A stretch of DNA of 30,368 nt, from IMG/VR virus record IMGVR_UViG_3300003366_000013, positions 1-30,368 of that record, one strand, 5' to 3'. How positions within the stretch are numbered: position 1 is the first letter of the stretch; each line of letters starts with the position of its first letter. The DNA comes from a virus. Taxonomy: Duplodnaviria; Caudoviricetes. Position numbers and translations under genes: made by a program. The notes beneath the pieces are model-generated. The model saw nothing but the letters and a program-made list of their open reading frames with translations. It made no database searches and had not been told where the DNA came from. This document shows positions 148 through 28,364 of this stretch, piece by piece.

Positions 148-1434
148 CTACTGGACTTTACGGGCCAGTCTTACCTTTACTGTTTGCCTAAATTTGTATA
201 TATTTTTGCGCGTTGCATTACCTACTGCATTACCAGATGCATTACCATTTTTCCTGGTCAATAGCCCGTCCAGTTTACTGGCGGCGGCCTTCTTTAACTT
301 TACCGACACATGGGCATAGATATTGCCCGTTGTCTTTATGCTGGCATGCCCAAGTAGTTCCTGGACAACCTTTATATCCTCACCCTGCTCCAGGAGTCTT
401 GTGGCATATGTGTGGCGCAAGGCATGAAGGTTTACTTCCTCTGGTATCCCGGCTTTCTTTTTAACGGCGTAAAAGGCCCGTGTGAAGTTCCTGGGGACTA
501 TGGGCTTACCGTGCTTTGTGCAGAATATGAGGTCAGTTGTCTTATCGTATTTATCACCGGCCTTAATCTCTATGGCGGCATGGTAGGCCTTATATTTTTT
601 CATGGCTTCAATCAACGGCTTGGGCATCGGAATAGTGCGCTTTGATTTTTCTGTTTTAGGAGAGTCTATATATAGGCCTTTTGATTTCGTTCTTACCAGT
701 GAATGGACAACCTTTATTGTACCGGCCTCAATGTCCACGTCCTGCCAGCGCAGGGCCAACAATTCTCCCTCCCGAAGGCCTGTCCCAAGTAAACACAGAA
801 AAGCGGTCCCCCACCTATCACTCTCCAGCTGGGCCAGGAAACGATCCATCTCATCCGTAGTCAGGGCCCTAACCTCTTTGCCATCCAGTTTAGGCAATTT
901 AGTAGACTTGGCAGGATTCCAGCTAATTATCCTATTTTCAACGGCCTGTTCAAGGCAGGAAAGGATAATTTGGTGGTTGCGCCGGATGGTGGCCGGGGCC
1001 TTTTTGGCCTTTCTCATCTTATTATATAGCCGCTGAATATCCCCCGGCTTTACGTCTCTCAGGTATATGTGCCCGAGGGCCGGCATGATGTGAGTCCTTA
1101 TGTTTATATAGTAGTTTTCCCATGTGGAAAGACGGAGGTCCATTTTTTTATAATCCTCCATCCACCCGGTGATCCACTCACTAAATAAATAATGAGCCTG
1201 CAGATCAATCCCTTTGCCGTGCTCCTCCATTATATCCCGCATTTTTTCTTTCACTTCGGGCCTGGTCTTACCGTATACGCTTTTCCTTATGGGGTTCCCG
1301 GTGTTCGGATTGGTGCCAATAGTGACCTGGCCGATCCATTTTTTGAAGTGCTTACTGGTAGGGCTCATGCACTGATAGATAGTGCCCTCACCGTTGGCGT
1401 TGCGAGGCTTCTTGACTTTTTTCTTTTCGGTCAT
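148..1434 (-). CDS. int: Tyrosine recombinase / phage integrase
   Basis: N-terminal R.NGEGTIY arm-binding motif; catalytic motifs TGLREGELLAL, HALRHTYAT, LGH...T.NIY. Confidence 0.97.
   Translation of the reverse strand: MTEKKKVKKPRNANGEGTIYQCMSPTSKHFKKWIGQVTIGTNPNTGNPIRKSVYGKTRPEVKEKMRDIMEEHGKGIDLQAHYLFSEWITGWMEDYKKMDLRLSTWENYYINIRTHIMPALGHIYLRDVKPGDIQRLYNKMRKAKKAPATIRRNHQIILSCLEQAVENRIISWNPAKSTKLPKLDGKEVRALTTDEMDRFLAQLESDRWGTAFLCLLGTGLREGELLALRWQDVDIEAGTIKVVHSLVRTKSKGLYIDSPKTEKSKRTIPMPKPLIEAMKKYKAYHAAIEIKAGDKYDKTTDLIFCTKHGKPIVPRNFTRAFYAVKKKAGIPEEVNLHALRHTYATRLLEQGEDIKVVQELLGHASIKTTGNIYAHVSVKLKKAAASKLDGLLTRKNGNASGNAVGNATRKNIYKFRQTVKVRLARKVQ
214..246. repeat. Three TGCATTACC direct repeats at 12-bp period; putative integrase arm-type sites
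   Basis: Copies at 214, 226 and 238; a further CTACTGCATTAC copy at 2-13 on the other side of the att core. Confidence 0.6.
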
Positions 1435-3624: not shown

Positions 3625-3870
3625 ATGGGAAGGAGGATGGAGATGAAACTGAATTTTACCTATGACGATGAGGATAGGCCAATTAAGCGAGTATTAATGA
3701 GGACTTACTTTGAACATCCAATGACCATGGAAGTATCTAAGGACGGTGTCGTGTGTATAAAAACAATAATTGACAACTTAGAAACCGATACTGCTTTCAG
3801 CAAAGAAGACTTCGCCGACTTCACCGCCCTGGTAAACCGGATCAATAGGCAGATAGGGAACAAATCATGA
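3625..3870 (+). CDS. Hypothetical protein (start probably 3643)
   Basis: AGGAGG RBS, operon context. Confidence 0.65.
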   Translation: MGRRMEMKLNFTYDDEDRPIKRVLMRTYFEHPMTMEVSKDGVVCIKTIIDNLETDTAFSKEDFADFTALVNRINRQIGNKS

Positions 3871-4158
3871 CCCTCCCTCCCGGCCCCTGGACAGCGGACG
3901 TAATCCAGATGATTGTCAAGGCCCGGGTTGCCGAGATACGGCAAAACCTAAACGAAAGGAGTGAGCGAGTACGGACCGGATCGATAGTGTCTACCAGCCG
4001 GACCCCAGCGTCAAGAGGCTGTGGAAGCCGGGAAAGTGCATCCCGCTGACAGCGATAAAGTTTGTGGCCATGGTGGCCCTGCTGGCAGTAGTTGGAGTGC
4101 TGCTGGGCTGCGGAATGTCCCAGCTGGATGATTTGACATGGAAAGGGGGGTGGGGGTT

Positions 4159-4491
4159 TTGAAGCATACGCCGGGGCCGTGGGAAATCAGAAGCGATTTC
4201 CATAGTGTAGACGGATTTGTTGTTTATCGCGGCAGAGGTAATGACAATAAAACCATTGCAAGGTTTCCATATGGGAATGTCATTGGGAAACCTGAAGGAT
4301 GGGAAAAACGAGATAAGCAATATCAGGAGATTAAAGCAAATGTCCACCTTATAGCCGCCGCACCGGAACTGCTGGAGGCGTTGAAACACCTGTATAGGTT
4401 GCACTGTGAAGGTGCGTTTGCCCTGGAAGACAAGGATTACATTGCGATAACCAAAGCAGCGGCCGCAATAGCCAAAGCTGAAGGCAAATAG
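4159..4491 (+). CDS. Phage early protein with TPGPW...AN..LIAAAPELL motif (Ead/Ea22-like)
   Basis: KHTPGPW start and ANVHLIAAAPELLEALK motif common in phage early genes. Confidence 0.75.
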   Translation: MKHTPGPWEIRSDFHSVDGFVVYRGRGNDNKTIARFPYGNVIGKPEGWEKRDKQYQEIKANVHLIAAAPELLEALKHLYRLHCEGAFALEDKDYIAITKAAAAIAKAEGK

Positions 4492-4504
4492 GGGGTGAGA
4501 GGGA

Positions 4505-6021: not shown

Positions 6022-6058
6022 ACCTAATAATACCACAGGCCGCGCGGGCGGTCAAGGA

Positions 6059-6373
6059 GTGATAACCATGAGCATTTCCTGCGATTGCAGCGCAGAAGGA
6101 TACGATGGCCCGGATGTTTTTCGCGAAGAACACCCGACCGCCAGAAAGTCTTATAAATGCTGTGAGTGTGGCGGGGAGATAAGGCCTGGGCAAAAATATC
6201 ATAAGGAAACCGGCTTATGGGAAGGTAGATGGGAAACTCATCGCACTTGTGAGCCATGCTCAAGCATTAGAGATAAGTATTGTCCCCGGGGTTGGATTTA
6301 CGGGGAATTACAGGAAGCCATATATAACTGCCTTGGCTTTGACTATACCGAAGTGCCGGAACCGGAAGACTGA
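6059..6373 (+). CDS. Cys-rich phage hypothetical protein
   Basis: ARKSYKCCECGGEI.PGQKY...C..C. Confidence 0.7.
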   Translation: MITMSISCDCSAEGYDGPDVFREEHPTARKSYKCCECGGEIRPGQKYHKETGLWEGRWETHRTCEPCSSIRDKYCPRGWIYGELQEAIYNCLGFDYTEVPEPED

Positions 6374-6539
6374 TTAACGTCACCATTGGGGCGGCAGTGG
6401 ATAATTCTTGCAATAAGGCAAGCCACTCCCGGTAGATACCTGCCCGCCCCATTAATTTTACCTCCTCCCTATAGCCGGAAAAACCGGCAACTTTTTAAAG
6501 AAACCATGCCATTTGATAAATCCGTTAAGGAGACAGTCG

Positions 6540-7992: not shown

Positions 7993-8138
7993 TGCCCTGT
8001 GTCTTCAATAAAAGCGGCGGGTGCCTCCTGGGTAAGCCATTTCTTTCTAATGAACTGTCACCCTGCGAAGACGAGGAAGTTTGCGAGGATAGGATTGACA
8101 AGGAAGATAATTTTGAGTTGGAGGATGAGAGCGAATGA
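7992..8138 (+). CDS. Small acidic hypothetical protein (MPCVFNKSGG...)
   Basis: GGAGG RBS; overlaps neighbours at both ends. Confidence 0.5.
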   Translation: MPCVFNKSGGCLLGKPFLSNELSPCEDEEVCEDRIDKEDNFELEDESE

Positions 8139-9899: not shown

Positions 9900-9958
9900 A
9901 CACCCCAAGACACAACCCACAGCAAGCCGGTGCCTAGCCGGAATACAGGAGGTGCGAA

Positions 9959-10812: not shown

Positions 10813-10933
10813 AAAGACCTGCCCCCACTGCGGCAAAGAGTCATTCAGCGCGGCTGAGTCAGGGATATGGATTTGCCCCTATTGCGGTGAGGATATTACG
10901 GAGGTGAAGATTGATGAGATACCCCACAACTAA
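10802..10933 (+). CDS. Small zinc-ribbon protein, 43 aa (MAVKKTCPHCGK...CPYCG)
   Basis: Two CxxC motifs; overlaps previous stop. Confidence 0.65.
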   Translation: MAVKKTCPHCGKESFSAAESGIWICPYCGEDITEVKIDEIPHN

Positions 10934-11001
10934 GCCGAAGCCGTGAGTAAGTAGTTTGGTAAAACTGTGCAGTAAACCTACACAAAGAAAGGGTGGTTTA
11001 A

Positions 11002-11247
11002 ATGCTTGAAAATTTAAAATGTGGCGGTAAGAATAAATTCATCGTTCTGAAAAGGGATGACTGCAACAAGTACCTTGATAAAGAACATGGGAGTATGCTT
11101 TCAGAGGTATTGCAGTGTATTGCGGCAGGTAGACTCCAAGATCAAGATAAAACAAGCATAAGTAATGAGTACCTTGTGATTAATACAGATGAGCCATACG
11201 CACCGGAAATAATTGAAATTATGAAGCGCAACGGCCACTGGGGTTAG
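11002..11247 (+). CDS. Hypothetical protein (cassette 1)
   Basis: KFIVLKR.D...YLVINTDEPYA.EI; RBS; stop codon lies within the right motif. Confidence 0.75.
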   Translation: MLENLKCGGKNKFIVLKRDDCNKYLDKEHGSMLSEVLQCIAAGRLQDQDKTSISNEYLVINTDEPYAPEIIEIMKRNGHWG

Positions 11248-11291
11248 TGCACAACATAAAGATGGAGCCGGTGGTAAAAGTGTTCACTAAG
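11245..11291. repeat. 47-bp cassette junction (right end + 9 bp + left end)
   Basis: TAGTGCACAACATAAAGA-TGGAGCCGG-TGGTAAAAGTGTTCACTAAG; imperfect inverted arms. Confidence 0.8.
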
Positions 11292-11305
11292 AAAGGGTGA
11301 AAACA

Positions 11306-11488
11306 ATGATAAACAAAGAGAGATTTGAGGGAATTGAAATAGTACATGGTTGCGGATACTGGTTTGTATGCGATGACCACGCTTGCCCCTGTAGCCCTGA
11401 TTCTCCGGTTGGACGAGGGTACAGCGAAGAAGTGTATGCAAGTATGCAAAAACAACAGGAAGATGATAGAAAGCTACTGGACCGCTAA
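11306..11488 (+). CDS. Small hypothetical protein (cassette 2)
   Basis: AAAGGGTG RBS; stop within the right motif. Confidence 0.6.
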   Translation: MINKERFEGIEIVHGCGYWFVCDDHACPCSPDSPVGRGYSEEVYASMQKQQEDDRKLLDR

Positions 11489-11525
11489 TATACAACATAA
11501 AGATGTTTTTGAAAGGATTGTTATT

Positions 11526-11858
11526 ATGAAGGTCTTTAAGATGGATGATTATGATTGGGTAGCGGCCAATAGCAAAGAGGAAGCTATTAGTTTTTACACT
11601 AATGAAATGGGCATCTCTGAGGATGAGTTGGACATAAAAGAATGCAACTTAAAAAAGGACGGCATGTTTACAGAAATAAACCTTGACGATGCAATTGCCA
11701 AATTAACTAAATTGGCCAATGGTGAAAAAGTCGATGACCGCAGATCATTAAGATTTTCATATATAGACTCTCTGTTGGCTATATGGGTGCCATTTGAAGA
11801 TGAATTAAAAAAGAATAGTAGTGCGGAACCTTTTGTAATCTGTTCCACAGAGTTTTAA
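11526..11858 (+). CDS. Hypothetical protein (MKVFKMDDYDWVAA...)
   Basis: GAAAGGA RBS before ATG 11526. Confidence 0.7.
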   Translation: MKVFKMDDYDWVAANSKEEAISFYTNEMGISEDELDIKECNLKKDGMFTEINLDDAIAKLTKLANGEKVDDRRSLRFSYIDSLLAIWVPFEDELKKNSSAEPFVICSTEF

Positions 11859-11884
11859 TGATAAAAATCTAAGGAAGTGAGAGT

Positions 11885-12043
11885 GTGAGAAATAAAATAG
11901 CAAGATACGTTTATAAATGGATAGTTAAGTATTGCAAAAGCCACAATGACGACTGCAAAGGCTGTATTTTTAATGATTGCCGACCAAGGTGTGGCTGCAT
12001 AGTAAACATACCGAGTGAATGGTATGAGCCAAAGAAAAGATGA
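11885..12043 (+). CDS. Small Cys-rich protein, 52 aa (MRNKIARYVYKW...)
   Basis: AAGGA RBS, GTG start; TGA stop begins the right motif. Confidence 0.55.
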   Translation: MRNKIARYVYKWIVKYCKSHNDDCKGCIFNDCRPRCGCIVNIPSEWYEPKKR

Positions 12044-12087
12044 TGCAAACTTTAAAGATGCGGCTACTGGTAAAAGTGTGCAATAAG
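12041..12087. repeat. Second 47-bp cassette junction
   Basis: TGATGCAAACTTTAAAGA-TGCGGCTAC-TGGTAAAAGTGTGCAATAAG; same length and register as 11245-11291. Confidence 0.75.
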
Positions 12088-12100
12088 GAGGATATGGTTT

Positions 12101-12469
12101 ATGAACGCCGATATAGCAATGAGATTTATGAAAACAGTTCAAAAGTTTTCTCCAAACTGCTTTATTAATGCAAATTTTGAACTTATTGTAGAGCCAAAAA
12201 ACAATATTTACTTTCGGTTGACAGATGTAGAAACAGATTTGGAATTGAAATGTAAAGTTATTGCATGGCTATCAAGACCAAGTTGTAAAGGGGTTAGTAA
12301 GTATTGGCAAAGCAGAATTAGGGGTATCGTAAATGAGTTTTTAGGAACTGATTTCACCGTTGAAGAAATGACTGAAATATACACTTACCTGGGTAATGAC
12401 TGCAATAGGAATAAGTGCATTAAATTTATTGAAACTAACTATGATTTGTCCTTACTGGAAAGTGCTTAA
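12101..12469 (+). CDS. Hypothetical protein (last cassette of the array)
   Basis: AAGGAGG RBS; FIN.NFELI..PK.N.YF...LKCKVIAWLSR; stop within the right motif. Confidence 0.8.
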   Translation: MNADIAMRFMKTVQKFSPNCFINANFELIVEPKNNIYFRLTDVETDLELKCKVIAWLSRPSCKGVSKYWQSRIRGIVNEFLGTDFTVEEMTEIYTYLGNDCNRNKCIKFIETNYDLSLLESA

Positions 12470-12502
12470 TTCACAACATAAAGAAACCGCGAGGTGATCT
12501 CA

Positions 12503-12658
12503 ATGTCAGATAAACCACCCTGCACCTACCCCTGGCGCGACCTGTACCCTGGCTACCCTCCTGAGTGCTATGTGAGGGTGCCGGGGAAGGATGGACGGCC
12601 GGATTGTGCGTGGTGTTGGTATGGTGGGCAAGGGTGCAAGGGGAGAGTTAGGAAATAG
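12503..12658 (+). CDS. Small Cys/Pro-rich protein, 51 aa
   Basis: GAGGTG RBS. Confidence 0.4.
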   Translation: MSDKPPCTYPWRDLYPGYPPECYVRVPGKDGRPDCAWCWYGGQGCKGRVRK

Positions 12659-16064: not shown

Positions 16065-16457
16065 TGGTAAAATTGTGCAGTAAAGAGGAGTGATTATATG
16101 CAAAGAGATTTTGAGTGGTTAAAGGAATTAAAAGTTGGAGATGAAGTCGCAATAGACATAAGTAGCACCTGGCAGAGGAATGTTTTTAAAATTAGCAAGG
16201 TTGAAAAGATTACGCCTACTGGAAGGATAAAACTATCCGATGGCAGCCAATATCAACCAAATGGGAGAAAAATCGGCGAAAGCTATTCCTGTCCTTTAAG
16301 ACAAATAACGCCTGAAATATTAGAAATAATTGAAAGACGAAATTTGATGAGTAAACTTGAATTTGACAAATTTAAAGGTTTGTTGAGCGTTGAAAGATTA
16401 AAGATGTTGCTCCAATGGCAGGAGGAATTAGCAAAGAAGTAGTGCGCAAAATAAAGA
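16065..16457 (+). mobile_element. Solitary repeat-bounded gene cassette
   Basis: TGGTAAAATTGTGCAGTAAA at 16065 and TAGTGCGCAAAATAAAGA at 16440 bracket exactly one gene. Confidence 0.6.
16098..16442 (+). CDS. Hypothetical protein (LKVGDEV...KVEKITPTGRIK; possible SH3-like barrel)
   Basis: GAGGAG RBS; AT-rich. Confidence 0.75.
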   Translation: MQRDFEWLKELKVGDEVAIDISSTWQRNVFKISKVEKITPTGRIKLSDGSQYQPNGRKIGESYSCPLRQITPEILEIIERRNLMSKLEFDKFKGLLSVERLKMLLQWQEELAKK

Positions 16458-16595: not shown

Positions 16596-16632
16596 AAATA
16601 ACCGCAGGGGCGGTAAAAATAAGGGGGATGAA

Positions 16633-16977
16633 ATGATGTTAAACGGAGCAAGGGCGCATTCAAGCGGTGGGGCGGCAGGATTTCCAGCGGAATGTGTGAC
16701 ACAAGCGGCACCTCCCAGACAACCAGCACTGGACGAGGCTGTAAATGCAATACATGATGAGGTGATGAGGTATTACAATGGGCTTGACGGTCTTATTTGC
16801 AGACTTGAAGCACCAAGGCCAAGTAATACCGGTTCCGGCGGTGATAAGGCTGTTCCTGCAACAATCGGGGAAGCATTACAGGACATCTATAACATACTTA
16901 GCAATACTAACGAAGCACTACAGTATACGATCAAGCGCATAGACGAGCAAGTTGGCGAACTGAAGCTTTTGCCGTAA
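16633..16977 (+). CDS. Hypothetical protein
   Basis: AAGGGGG RBS; followed by GC hairpin at about 16985-17008. Confidence 0.65.
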   Translation: MMLNGARAHSSGGAAGFPAECVTQAAPPRQPALDEAVNAIHDEVMRYYNGLDGLICRLEAPRPSNTGSGGDKAVPATIGEALQDIYNILSNTNEALQYTIKRIDEQVGELKLLP

Positions 16978-19181: not shown

Positions 19182-19490
19182 ATGGCAAACATACTCCCAA
19201 TTAACGCCATGTACTTGTCATGGTTTCGTGACCGAGGCAAACAGGACCTATATCCGGCCGACATACTGATTTACATAATGATATTGTCCCGGGCAGACTC
19301 AGACACCCTGACCTGCTTCCCGTCGATTCAGACCATTTGTGATGATTGCGGGGGCCTTGATAGGAGAGCAGTTTGGGGCAGCCTCAAGAGATTGGAGCAG
19401 CTAAAATACATCGAGGTAAAAAAGAGTAGAGGGCGCCCCAATGTTTATTTCATGTCCCATTTTAAGCAATGGAAAAAAGAGCATGGGTAG
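19182..19490 (+). CDS. Winged-HTH protein resembling a replication-initiator N-terminus; short or truncated
   Basis: LIY..ILSRAD....CFPSIQTI..DCG.LDRRAV..SLKRLE..KYIEV....GRPNVY. Confidence 0.75.
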   Translation: MANILPINAMYLSWFRDRGKQDLYPADILIYIMILSRADSDTLTCFPSIQTICDDCGGLDRRAVWGSLKRLEQLKYIEVKKSRGRPNVYFMSHFKQWKKEHG

Positions 19491-19593
19491 GTACAAAAAT
19501 GTACCCCCCAGTAGGTACAAATCTGGACCTACTACCAGGTACAAAATTGTACCTCTAACTGAGACCATTTAACTGAGACCATAACAGAGACCA
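19490..19593. repeat. Iteron-like repeats
   Basis: Palindromes GGTAC-N6-G(T/G)ACC at 19490, 19514, 19538 (24-bp period), then TAAC(T/A)GAGACCA x3. Confidence 0.8.
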
Positions 19594-25133: not shown

Positions 25134-25742
25134 ATGAAAGTCTTAATCTGCATCCCATACACCGGTTATGTCGCACCCCAGGCCGCTTATTCCCTTATCC
25201 CTATGGCTTGCCATGCACGGAACAAGGGGGTAAGCGTTGATATGCTACCCATTGGGTTAAGCCTGGTCTACACCGCCCGAGAGGAAGCGGCAAAAGCGTT
25301 TCTTCAGGGAGGATATGATGCCCTGTTATTCGTTGACAGTGATATGGTTGTGCCGGTTGACCTGTTGACCAGGCTTATAGATGCCGACAAGGACATAGTT
25401 TCCGCACTGGCCTTTAAGCGTACGCCGGGATATGAGCCCTGCATATTCAAGACATGCAATGAGCAGGATGCAAAGTTCTATCTTGACTACCCCAAAGGCT
25501 TGACCGAGATCGAGGGCGTTGGCATGGCCTGCACATTGATAAAGCGCAAGGTATTTGAGACAGTACCGAAACCCTGGTTTTTCCCGCACAAGATACTTGG
25601 AGAGGATTTATCATTCTGTGTCCGGGCCCGGGGAGCAGGGTTTAAAATATTCTGCGATACAACCTTGATATGTGGCCATTGCAATGTGGAGACGATAGGG
25701 GAGGCGCATTATGTTAATTGGCGCAATGCTGGTCAGAAATGA
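25134..25742 (+). CDS. GT-A fold glycosyltransferase
   Basis: LLFVDSD DxD motif, G.GMACTLIKR.VF, GEDLSFC.RA..AGFKI. Confidence 0.85.
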   Translation: MKVLICIPYTGYVAPQAAYSLIPMACHARNKGVSVDMLPIGLSLVYTAREEAAKAFLQGGYDALLFVDSDMVVPVDLLTRLIDADKDIVSALAFKRTPGYEPCIFKTCNEQDAKFYLDYPKGLTEIEGVGMACTLIKRKVFETVPKPWFFPHKILGEDLSFCVRARGAGFKIFCDTTLICGHCNVETIGEAHYVNWRNAGQK

Positions 25743-26394
25743 GGCTGGAAGATGGCTTGAAACTGTACTTCAACAGATGACTATGGTATGTGACATAATC
25801 ATCATTGTAGACGATTGCAGTACAGACGAAACACCAGAGATATGTAAAAAGTACGGTGAAGTCTTTTACTCTGACCGCAGCTACTGGGGCACAAACGAAC
25901 TGAGGCAGAGGAAATTCCTGTGGCATTTAGCTGTAGGCGAAGCAAAAGAGGGCGACTGGATTCTCTGCCTGGATGCAGATGAAACATTTGACCGTCCCGA
26001 CCTGATCCGAGATTACATACAGAAGGCAGAAGCCGTCAAGTGTAACAGTTTAGCCTTTCCACTCTACGATATGTGGGACGAAACCCATTACCGGGACGAT
26101 CACTATTGGCAGGCTCACAATGGAGTCTGGCCTTTCTGTGTGAAGCATGAGGACATTGACTACTTCTGGAAGGAAACGCCCCTGCATTGCGGACGCTTCC
26201 CGATGAATGCCGGAGTAAGAATTGCATCATGCCCGGTCAGAATCCAACATTGGGGATGGGCAAGGCCGGAGGACCGGCAGGAGAAATATGAGCGGTATAT
26301 GAGGGCAGACCCGGAAGGGAAAAGCGGGTGTCTGAATCAGTATCAGAGCATACTCGACCCAAGTCCTGTGCTCAGGAGGTTTACTGATGTATGA
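25711..26394 (+). CDS. GT2-like glycosyltransferase
   Basis: VRNE, VDDCSTDET, WILCLDADE, IQHWGW...K..RY. Confidence 0.88.
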   Translation: MLIGAMLVRNEAGRWLETVLQQMTMVCDIIIIVDDCSTDETPEICKKYGEVFYSDRSYWGTNELRQRKFLWHLAVGEAKEGDWILCLDADETFDRPDLIRDYIQKAEAVKCNSLAFPLYDMWDETHYRDDHYWQAHNGVWPFCVKHEDIDYFWKETPLHCGRFPMNAGVRIASCPVRIQHWGWARPEDRQEKYERYMRADPEGKSGCLNQYQSILDPSPVLRRFTDV

Positions 26395-27022
26395 CGTGAG
26401 CGTGACCTGTAATCCATATGCCAATATATCTGGACACATGGGGAATGACAGGTTCTTCCCGCCCATGCCCGAGGAAGAATACAACCGGTGCGGCGAATTT
26501 AACGCCCGGCAGGTGATAGAGGGATTTAGAAAGAGATCCCAAAAACCGACAGACATAATCGTTGACTGGGGTTGCGGTAATCTGAGGATAGGTAGGGTCT
26601 TGTCAAAGGAATGTAAGCAGTATACCGGAGTTGATATTTCGCCCATTGTCTTAGATGCGGCCAAAGCCAAGGCCAGCGAGTACAGCCTGGTCAATGTCAG
26701 CTTTATACTGGCAAGCGAATTTGACAAGGAAAACTACTGCGATTTGGCTATCTGCTTCCAGGTGGTGCAACACAACCCGTACAATGAGCAGATAAACATT
26801 ATACAAAAAATTAAAAAGGCGCTAAAACCCGGCGGGTGGGCGTGTATCCACTTGCCAAAACTGGAAAATAAGCCAGACTACAAAAACTATGAGACCTGTA
26901 TGTGTTTTACCCGGTCCCAGGCGTTGGAGTTGGGCGGCTATTTCTCAAAATGCGAACTTGACGAGAATCTCCTACTGGAAGGCTGGCTTGATTATTACAT
27001 GTGGGTGCAAAAGGAGGATTGA
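26387..27022 (+). CDS. Class I SAM-dependent methyltransferase
   Basis: VDWGCG..R, GVDIS, V.QH, LKPGG. Confidence 0.85.
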   Translation: MYDVSVTCNPYANISGHMGNDRFFPPMPEEEYNRCGEFNARQVIEGFRKRSQKPTDIIVDWGCGNLRIGRVLSKECKQYTGVDISPIVLDAAKAKASEYSLVNVSFILASEFDKENYCDLAICFQVVQHNPYNEQINIIQKIKKALKPGGWACIHLPKLENKPDYKNYETCMCFTRSQALELGGYFSKCELDENLLLEGWLDYYMWVQKED

Positions 27023-27024
27023 CC

Positions 27025-27618
27025 TTGGACAACGCCTATTTCACCACCAACGACGAAAAAAGCAATAAAATATATGATTTTACCATCCCCGAAGTGTGGT
27101 GGAGCCGACTATATGAATACATATGGGCCAAGCGCCTTATAAAGCCGGGAGAAACCGTCCTTGATGCCGGGAGCGGACCGAATTATCCGTTTCAGTACGA
27201 GCTTGCAGAGAACGGCTGTAAAGTTTATAGCATAGACATTAACCCCGACCTACTCAAGAGCAAGCCGCACCCGAATATCAGCCATATCGTTGCCAGCATC
27301 GACAACATTCCGCTGTGCAACTGTAAGGTAGACACAATCTACTGCATTAGCGTGTTGGAACACCTGCCATATGACACGGTTAAAAGGGTATTCGGGGAGT
27401 TTTACCGGGTGCTGAAGCCGGACGGCCGCCTTGTGCTGACCCTGGACACAACCATGGACGGGCGGTATTCATGCATCAGGAGGCCGGAAGAGTTGTTTGG
27501 CATAGCGGAGGGATTCAAGTATGGAGAATATCAGAGAGACCCGCCCCCGGATGCCATACGAAATGATGAGTGCGGGTTATACTGCTACCATGCTGTTATG
27601 GTAAAGGAGGGCATATGA
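27025..27618 (+). CDS. Class I SAM-dependent methyltransferase
   Basis: VLDAGSG, IDIN, CISVLEHL, EFYRVLKPDG.L. Confidence 0.9.
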   Translation: MDNAYFTTNDEKSNKIYDFTIPEVWWSRLYEYIWAKRLIKPGETVLDAGSGPNYPFQYELAENGCKVYSIDINPDLLKSKPHPNISHIVASIDNIPLCNCKVDTIYCISVLEHLPYDTVKRVFGEFYRVLKPDGRLVLTLDTTMDGRYSCIRRPEELFGIAEGFKYGEYQRDPPPDAIRNDECGLYCYHAVMVKEGI

Positions 27619-28364
27619 AAGTTCTAATCGCGGCGCCCGTCCGACAAAGCCCGGAGATATTCCGGGAATATCTGAAGTCACTGCAAAACCTTGAAAAGCC
27701 TTGTCAATGCGACAGGCTTTTTATTTTACACAACAGCCCGGAGTTGATACCGCTGATTAAGGCACACCCGGAGCCGTGCATGTTTTCGGAATACAAGACA
27801 AGCGATGAGTACAAGAGCGACGGCAACCGGCACCTGTGGACTTCGCAGCTAGTCGCGAACATTATCAAGATGAAAAACGGGATCGCCAAATTCGCGTTGG
27901 ATAACGGGTATGATTATATCTTTTTTGTAGATACCGACTTGATACTGCACCCAAAAACTTTGGTCCAGCTCCTGGAAACCAAGAAGGATATTGTTGCCGA
28001 AATCTTTTGGACACGTTGGGACAAGGACGGCCAGCCGTTACCTAACTGCTGGATGTTCGACAGCTATTCCGGCGTTGATTATGCTCACATAGCGGAATGG
28101 TTAAGGCCGGGAACTTATGAGGTGGGGCAGACCGGGGCCTGTATTCTCCTACACAGGAGCGTATTTGAGCGTGGCGTATGCTACGACGATATTTACAACC
28201 TGGGGTTTGACGGAGAGGACAGGTTCTTTTGCGTTCGGGCGGCTTGTGCCGGCTACAAGATATGGATTGACACGCATTACCCAGCGGTGCACCTATACCG
28301 GCCGGAACTGTACCAGAAATACATGAAAAAGGGAGGGTATGAGGCCGCTTTTGAAGCGGGGTGA
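27615..28364 (+). CDS. GT-A fold glycosyltransferase
   Basis: YIFFVDTD, GACILL.R, GEDRFFCVRA..AGYKIWIDT.YP..H. Confidence 0.88.
   Translation: MKVLIAAPVRQSPEIFREYLKSLQNLEKPCQCDRLFILHNSPELIPLIKAHPEPCMFSEYKTSDEYKSDGNRHLWTSQLVANIIKMKNGIAKFALDNGYDYIFFVDTDLILHPKTLVQLLETKKDIVAEIFWTRWDKDGQPLPNCWMFDSYSGVDYAHIAEWLRPGTYEVGQTGACILLHRSVFERGVCYDDIYNLGFDGEDRFFCVRAACAGYKIWIDTHYPAVHLYRPELYQKYMKKGGYEAAFEAG

Follow-up and report, generated by a model that had tools for sequence, protein, structure and literature searches.

Short arm-core-arm sites bound exchangeable small gene units in the early region of a temperate phage and recur in Clostridiaceae chromosomes

Integrons use attC sites, hairpins of single-stranded DNA that contain R and L boxes; pdif sites occur in alternating orientation, and in Tn916-type elements the conserved ends are separated by a coupling sequence that varies. 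Phages, too, have been described to carry gene cassettes of integrons and CALINs (available portion of PMC9892861), and dif sites, whose sequences are given in the accessible part of PMC3025954, have an 11-6-11 layout of arm, core and arm. Shuffling mediated by PeSLs provides a precedent for linker-driven module exchange (PMC2839356, available portion), and the stoperators of mycobacteriophages are a precedent for regulator sites (PMC9283540, available portion). How temperate phages precisely gain or swap single early genes is an old open question. Here, we analyze a stretch of 30,368 nucleotides (the window), a 30-kb fragment of a temperate phage that is 70% complete. In addition to an integrase, it encodes two HTH proteins, a replication initiator (12882), DnaB, RusA, a Cas4-like exonuclease, terminase and portal proteins, and it carries an array of small genes in its early region, immediately upstream of the replication genes (Table 1). 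Its relatives and gene content point to a host in the Firmicutes, probably in the Clostridia. Elsewhere in the window, a glycosyltransferase gene and two methyltransferase genes lie between the portal and capsid genes (25134-28364), and a late-regulator-like gene is followed by a short HTH gene and then by a 31-bp inverted repeat (19182-19554).

Table 1. Positions of the sites, cargo genes and reference features in the window.
Feature	Position	Strand	Remarks
Phage integrase	148..1434	-	Only tyrosine recombinase of the contig (PF00589 search); 9.5 kb from the array
Intergenic stretches nearly identical in relative G001	3866-3898, 4474-4498, 6034-6059, 6460-6499, 8103-8129, 9933-9958, 16596-16633		
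Backbone linker, left edge of slot	10924..10945	+	Common to both relatives; three-way alignment
Left end L1	10957..10976	+	Lone; core TGGTAA 10957-10962 plus arm
Cargo g1	11002..11247	+	81 aa; phrog_5992, function unassigned; no Pfam or PADLOC match
Right end R1	11245..11262	+	Stop, arm 11246-11256, core TAAAGA 11257-11262
Junction 1	11263..11271	+	9 bp separating two cores
Left end L2	11272..11291	+	
Cargo g2	11306..11488	+	60 aa; no family match
Right end R2	11486..11503	+	No left end following
Cargo g3	11526..11858	+	110 aa; phrog_5459
Possible eroded left end	11859..11875	+	Judged by eye; not a matrix match
Cargo g4	11885..12043	+	52 aa; weak phrog_1087 match
Right end R3	12041..12058	+	
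Junction 2	12059..12067	+	9 bp separating two cores
Left end L3	12068..12087	+	
Cargo g5	12101..12469	+	122 aa; phrog_7711, widespread in Firmicutes phages
Right end R4	12467..12484	+	Closing end of the array; similarity with the backbone of the relatives restarts directly 3' of the core
Backbone gene, right edge of slot	12503..12658	+	Common to both relatives
Left end L4	16065..16084	+	Separate single-gene unit
Cargo g6	16098..16442	+	114 aa; phrog_9662; GC 0.36
Right end R5	16440..16457	+	Begins at the g6 stop codon

An earlier note made from the window's letters had described seven motifs around the genes of the array, and all seven are present. When matrices built from these sites were scored by leave-one-out over ~60,700 positions, six of the seven sites ranked 3-4 and the site at 12041 ranked 13; in 30 Markov shuffles used as background, the best scores were 18.8 for the left and 17.8 for the right motif. 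The list had missed a separate unit at 16065-16457, in which a new left/right pair encloses a sixth AT-rich gene in the same layout as in the array. Its left site, which had not been used for training, scores 25.6 and thus exceeds the best left shuffle, whereas the likewise untrained right site scores 17.7, within the shuffle maximum, so that this call rests on its placement at the stop codon. Altogether, the nine sites of the window are of two types and occur around six low-GC genes only.

Each unit follows the order core, 11-bp arm, ribosome site, gene, stop codon, 11-bp arm and core. All five right ends keep the register of stop codon, 11-bp arm and core TAAAGA, so the reported start of the right motif at the stop codon extends to the newly found site at 16440. 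In the four left ends, the core TGGTAA is followed by the 11-bp arm and the ribosome site; the left motif had been said to lie just before the latter, but the one at 10957 lies ~30 bp upstream rather than adjoining it. Each motif is half of a site consisting of an 11-bp arm, a 6-bp core and an 11-bp arm. The arms are imperfect mirror images, with 11 and 12 of 18 positions matched at the two junctions, and the junctions are 75% alike over 44 bp. Their spacers do have the 9-bp length originally given, but they are not fully variable, as both share TGnnGC. The 47-bp junction had been taken as the site of the unit, which is probably incorrect: a compact arm-core-arm form of ~28 bp is the commoner joined form in relatives (see below), and the 9-bp stretch therefore lies between two cores. 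The right end at 11486 had been listed as lacking a left end; two genes lie between it and 12041, and a possible eroded left end at 11859 matches the left motif in seven of its first eight bases, with most of the arm gone.

The cargo genes are unrelated, co-oriented and promoterless, as the earlier note had stated, and each finishes at a site, with g3 as the exception; its homologue in Bacillus phage 11143 terminates at an analogous motif. They are also more AT-rich than their surroundings (GC content 0.33-0.45; the median of the 32 other early genes is 0.47, p=1.4e-4), and no target-site duplication is visible in the flanks of the units, again in line with that note. No Pfam or PADLOC match was obtained for g1-g6, and no Atlas match for g5. 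Inside the motifs, we found neither a sigma-70 promoter nor a terminator (0 of the 8 promoter-like and 11 terminator-like matches in the window) nor an Rfam match, and the junctions do not fold consistently better than shuffles (z = 0.53, 0.09, -1.81, -1.55).

Comparison with related phages revealed that the array occupies a slot with changing content. A search with the replication protein returned 80 loci, one of them close (L057 in the phage record G001, 94%), and a metagenome scan with the gene 3' of the array returned five, namely an identical copy of the window, G001, the locus L209 and two weak matches. The slot thus exists in three versions, which have in common the linker, ending 11 bp short of L1, and the gene that follows R4. 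We consider it exchangeable because its content differs among them. In G001, it holds one 254-aa gene of the PAPS-reductase family with a right end that scores 18.7 on the matrix and a left-like end that is recognized by eye only (11 of 17 positions, no matrix match). In L209, it is occupied by a 132-aa gene, which is accompanied by the initial portion of the left motif but lacks a right end. Likeness between the window and these relatives restarts directly after the right core, and an empty site is found in neither of the two. The window and G001 further share many single-copy intergenic stretches of 25-60 bp that are unrelated to the motifs, are spread across the early region and lie among otherwise unrelated genes; these stretches match a prediction of linker recombination. 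Searches with the window's own sequences yielded little else. The exact junction pattern had no match in viral contigs, and the 61-bp junction found nothing better than E about 5 among named phages. A looser junction pattern gave 30 genome matches and the left motif alone two viral matches, all of which were judged chance, and the linker pattern gave three matches, one known relative and two by chance.

The right-end pattern led to a wider family of sites. It matched ~300 viral stretches, of which 120 loci were listed and reduced to 98 distinct contexts; 89 of these lie within long reading frames and were judged chance, and four end a gene. Among the matches listed, all four gene-ending contexts are followed by a left-arm-like sequence, which was not part of the search pattern. 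The low-GC records that contain them carry clusters of right ends at stop codons and left ends before ribosome sites, and in Clostridium-type phage records these clusters are confined to the accessory early region. The ends join in two forms, either long, with 12-13 bp between the cores as compared to 9 in the window, or compact, as arm, core and arm. We compared 12 Clostridium-type records and loci for shared blocks of at least 100 bp and at least 85% identity and found 10. In two blocks from the accessory region, three of the four ends fall within 6 bp of a core, whereas no site lies near any of the remaining 16 ends. One of the two is a unit of 571 bp, 100% identical between two related phages in which its neighbours differ, with both ends 6 bp from a core; the second starts 2 bp from a core. 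The slot content differs in both relatives, and breakpoints in Clostridium-type phages coincide with sites of the family, which supports the view that the motifs delimit gene units that can be exchanged.

A matrix built from the Clostridium records ranks the right ends of the window 1, 3, 6, 7 and 9 of 60,702 positions, a result with some circularity, since a right-end pattern had been used to find these records. It ranks the left ends 21, 102, 517 and 1751 of 60,702, so that membership in the family is good for the right ends and weak for the left ends. The two groups of phages differ in base composition (46% GC in the window phage versus 28-34% in the Clostridium-type phages), and a Clostridium-type array that was searched has no match among named phages. 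In Bacillus cereus-group phages (L026, L224-L231), an analogous motif, CAAAA-N5-ATTT, ends accessory early genes, and several homology block ends lie within ~15 bp of it. A loose version of this pattern shows no strand enrichment there; the motif may or may not be kin to the sites of the window.

Sites of the same family are also found in host chromosomes. Across 201 Clostridiaceae genomes, the right-end pattern has 38 matches versus 13 in the control, and the compact pattern has 94 matches, in 38 genomes and with up to 16 copies per genome, versus 2 for the reversed control. Outside this group, the right-end pattern occurs in 3 of 151 genomes of another order and 1 of 23 of another family, where no array was found. 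We examined the loci of 20 of the 94 compact matches, taken from six genomes with a bias toward copy-rich ones. Sixteen edge stretches that contain no gene; most of these are nested palindromes, 60-570 bp long, which carry the site at one end or at both. The other four separate small co-oriented genes of prophages or chromosomal arrays. At three of the latter four loci, and in further arrays of the same genomes, the unit consists of a site, a 16S-leader-like motif, a promoter-like sequence, a gene, a hairpin with a T-run and another site. The accessory 5' motif, which we take to be boxA, recurs 113 bp before a 16S rRNA gene. One genome has 12 copies of it, all on one strand and beside GNAT, HD and hydrolase genes, and it is absent from the units of the window. 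In one chromosome, an end of a 1.6-kb duplicated block falls inside a site, and one shared left shell begins at a right arm; other shared blocks begin or end in accessory repeats, not in cores.

Some of these chromosomal loci have features of their own. Self-contained gene units in Clostridium prophages and chromosomes (L443 in G192:C14, L439-L441, L475, L477 and L478; also L004, L022 and L249) carry the rRNA-leader-like 5' motif and, after it, a sequence with complementarity to the 5' arm of their own terminator-like hairpin. Judging from this complementarity, transcripts from upstream could read through, and those initiated internally could stop. The intergenic, multi-copy nested palindromes of 60-570 bp that end in a compact site (L374-L388 and L392, in G174, G189, G125 and G074) appear to be REPIN- or MITE-like, and no transposase was found for them in a search of the Y1 family. 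In one genome, two cassette arrays start just 3' of a DUF2922 gene, which in one case is accompanied by DUF1659 (L439, 12669-13147; L440, 7767-7985).

Homologues of the cargo genes mostly lack the ends seen in the window, contrary to the expectation that the same genes would carry them elsewhere. Among 23 loci with g1 or g5 homologues, one has a matrix match at the stop codon (score 11.2), and inspection by eye found the window's ends at none of 47 g6 loci, chosen from 64 by leaving out 17 that are mostly near-duplicates. As judged by eye, the two g1 homologues and approximately 5 of the 21 g5 homologues instead end in other stop-anchored motifs that are repeated in their own locus, and a close left end precedes an unrelated gene in L001. 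Further lineage-specific stop-anchored motifs lie between small early genes of Firmicutes phages (L003, L011, L023; L002, L010).

We found no recombinase that tracks the sites, either in phages or in Clostridium chromosomes. As previously remarked, none lies beside the array, the single PF00589 gene of the window being the phage integrase. G001 (93% complete) and a second record, G379 (100%), have no tyrosine recombinase at all. Among the 10 site-carrying phage records including the window, only G378 encodes a short tyrosine recombinase (PF00589), either in addition to an integrase or in its place, a 221-aa protein ~4 kb downstream of the array, and Bacillus phage BtCS33 has a likewise placed gene; we rejected this candidate because it is absent from most records. 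Large serine recombinases (490-542 aa) were rejected as well, as they are likely the prophage integrases. Y1 transposases were discarded, with no site beside six loci and no such gene in two of five site-rich genomes, as was an integron integrase, for which TIGR02249 stays below its cut-off in all five site-rich Clostridium genomes. Around 30 chromosomal recombinase loci, there are no intergenic sites, only three weak matches inside genes. A conserved 186-aa chromosomal recombinase occurs as a single copy in 14 of 194 genomes scored (7 were left out), and only 4 of these are among the 38 site-positive genomes. The gene for this protein, a tyrosine recombinase reduced to the catalytic domain, occupies the same position on the chromosome of two Clostridium genomes (L432, 4563-5123; L434, 4959-5519). 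A near-perfect palindromic dif-like 28-mer (L473; G125:C34:35885-35912) lies ~4 kb from the gene for a 335-aa tyrosine recombinase, and G189 has a like dif-type match near a similar gene.

We put at about 0.5 the probability that the motifs are recombinase half-sites, that the units move as circles with a compact-site junction and that the core sets their direction. The recombinase would likely be of the tyrosine type, supplied in trans by the host or another element and acting on the ~28-bp site. A unit would excise as a circle joined by the compact arm-core-arm site, and the circle would insert at a similar site or a degenerate look-alike, so that a run would begin with a lone left end and finish with a lone right end. 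Owing to the asymmetry of the core, the genes would stay co-oriented and hence be read from the early transcript of the phage. Small deletions may then erode the ends, ordinary recombination between repeats may add to the shuffling, and the 47-bp junction may consist of a right end and, immediately after it, what is left of a second, worn site. The strongest argument for a DNA-moving protein is that one palindromic site is outermost in bare phage genes, self-contained genes and gene-free elements alike. Since the chromosomal site lies outside promoter and terminator and also bounds elements with no gene, a mere linker between stop codon and ribosome site is insufficient. The chief obstacle is the difference between left and right cores, which would not be expected under simple homology-dependent excision, together with the fact that neither an enzyme nor a circle nor an empty site was found. 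We also count against a recombinase that several breakpoints lie in accessory repeats rather than cores and that L209 has a partial left motif and no right end. Thus, of the original proposal that mobile cassettes are moved by a site-specific recombinase, the boundaries of exchangeable units are borne out; the recombinase itself and empty sites did not turn up, and the ends mostly do not accompany cargo homologues.

Alternatively, the motifs could be conserved linkers, with genes swapped by ordinary or phage homologous recombination at look-alike borders and no site-specific enzyme now at work. This is a serious though unlikely alternative, and much of the above agrees with it: the many short, near-identical intergenic stretches common to the early regions of the window and G001, the replacement seen in the slot with no empty site, the breakpoints within accessory repeats, the lack of a recombinase that tracks the sites, the Cas4-like exonuclease encoded by the window, and the precedent of PeSL shuffling (PMC2839356, available portion). 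It leaves unexplained why phages of 46% and 28-34% GC alike retain mirror-image arms with a spaced core, and why the same site ends gene-free chromosomal elements and stands outside promoter and terminator in arrays. Moreover, the copies in the window are short and diverged, as the 75% likeness of the junctions illustrates, and would be poor substrates for homology.

The chromosomal loci could instead suggest that the motifs are the ends of non-autonomous palindromic host elements, MITE- or REPIN-like, whose transposase captured genes, the phage copies being worn relics. The imperfect inverted repeats and the gene-free, mostly palindromic stretches beside 16 of the 20 examined sites, at up to 16 copies per genome, speak for this origin. 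We nevertheless regard it as improbable, as target-site duplications are absent from the window, the Y1-transposase loci and site-rich genomes described above show no association, and the phage cores are unidirectional with the stop codon built into the arm. Least probable of all is that the motifs are stoperator-like regulator sites for transcription or translation at gene borders. Their orientation, their overlap with stop codons and their place before ribosome sites would suit such a role, for which mycobacteriophage stoperators are a precedent (PMC9283540, available portion), but the window copies are confined to the surroundings of six low-GC genes, contain no promoter, terminator or Rfam match and coincide with breakpoints, and similar sites are common to unrelated phages and chromosomes.

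Returning to a recombinase acting in trans, a broader and tentative reading, possible but held at less than even odds, is that Clostridia possess an equivalent of the integron with attC-free, double-stranded arm-core-arm sites, with lineage versions reaching Bacillus phages. Single genes would then move among prophage early regions and chromosomal arrays, and the same recombinase would spread gene-free palindromic parasites with identical ends. If an enzyme acts, this would be a gene-capture route of Clostridia that is invisible to attC-based screens and links phages to chromosomal arrays of small adaptive genes, and it could provide a new recombinase tool. If homology alone is responsible, the locus would be a well-mapped case of linker shuffling, of modest interest. 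In either case, a defined 28-bp site with known breakpoints, present in about one-fifth of the sampled Clostridiaceae genomes, makes the question of exchange directly testable. In the literature searched, with subscription journals largely outside reach, we found no published description of this site family.

Among known systems, the units resemble integron cassettes and CALINs in being tandem, co-oriented, unrelated and promoterless small genes that stop at a site and that an integrase need not adjoin (PMC9892861, available portion), and the chromosomal arrays carry GNAT, HD and hydrolase genes, as integrons do. They differ in that the ends of the window split mid-site and do not fold like attC (z 0.53 to -1.81); no GTTRRRY is seen by eye in its left ends, and its only PF00589 gene is the phage integrase rather than IntI. 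The family shares the 11-6-11 layout of Xer/dif sites, and its best match to the E. coli XerC arm, the arm at 16441-16451, agrees at 9 of 11 positions (PMC3025954, accessible part), as does one Clostridium-phage right arm with a candidate Clostridium dif. However, the arms of the window match that candidate at 4-7 of 11 positions and lack the inner ATAA/TTAT, and unlike dif or pdif, the copies are many, direct and phage-borne. The earlier assertion that the sites are neither attC nor dif thus stands, given the inconsistent folding and the low arm identity. With Tn916 ends, the window has in common imperfect inverted ends, the lack of target duplication and unequal junction sequences, but its cores are fixed per end type and the unit contains no integrase, excisionase or arm sites. 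The stretch between cores is 9 bp and varies around a shared TGnnGC in the window, is 12-13 bp or absent in relatives, and is flanked by conserved cores; it is probably not the Tn916-type coupling sequence that had been suggested, since it lies between two cores. Like PeSLs, the repeats lie on either side of accessory genes where the early region is plastic, insertions and replacements coincide with them, and genome differences map to them in a few cases; unlike PeSLs, as described in the available portion of PMC2839356, the motifs of the window have neither a sigma-70 promoter nor a stem-loop terminator, and the family consists of two distinct halves and recurs in host chromosomes. Its chromosomal members are intergenic, multi-copy and palindromic with inverted ends, similar to REPINs, but no Y1 transposase lies beside the sites, and the units of the window carry genes, unlike the REPIN/RAYT system (available portions of PMC5581495 and PMC6006769). 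Finally, nine sites of two types around six low-GC genes contrast with the many genome-wide copies of the asymmetric 13-bp stoperator. The family therefore falls outside integrons, dif sites, PeSLs and stoperators, and would represent a separate form of gene cassettes bounded by short sites.
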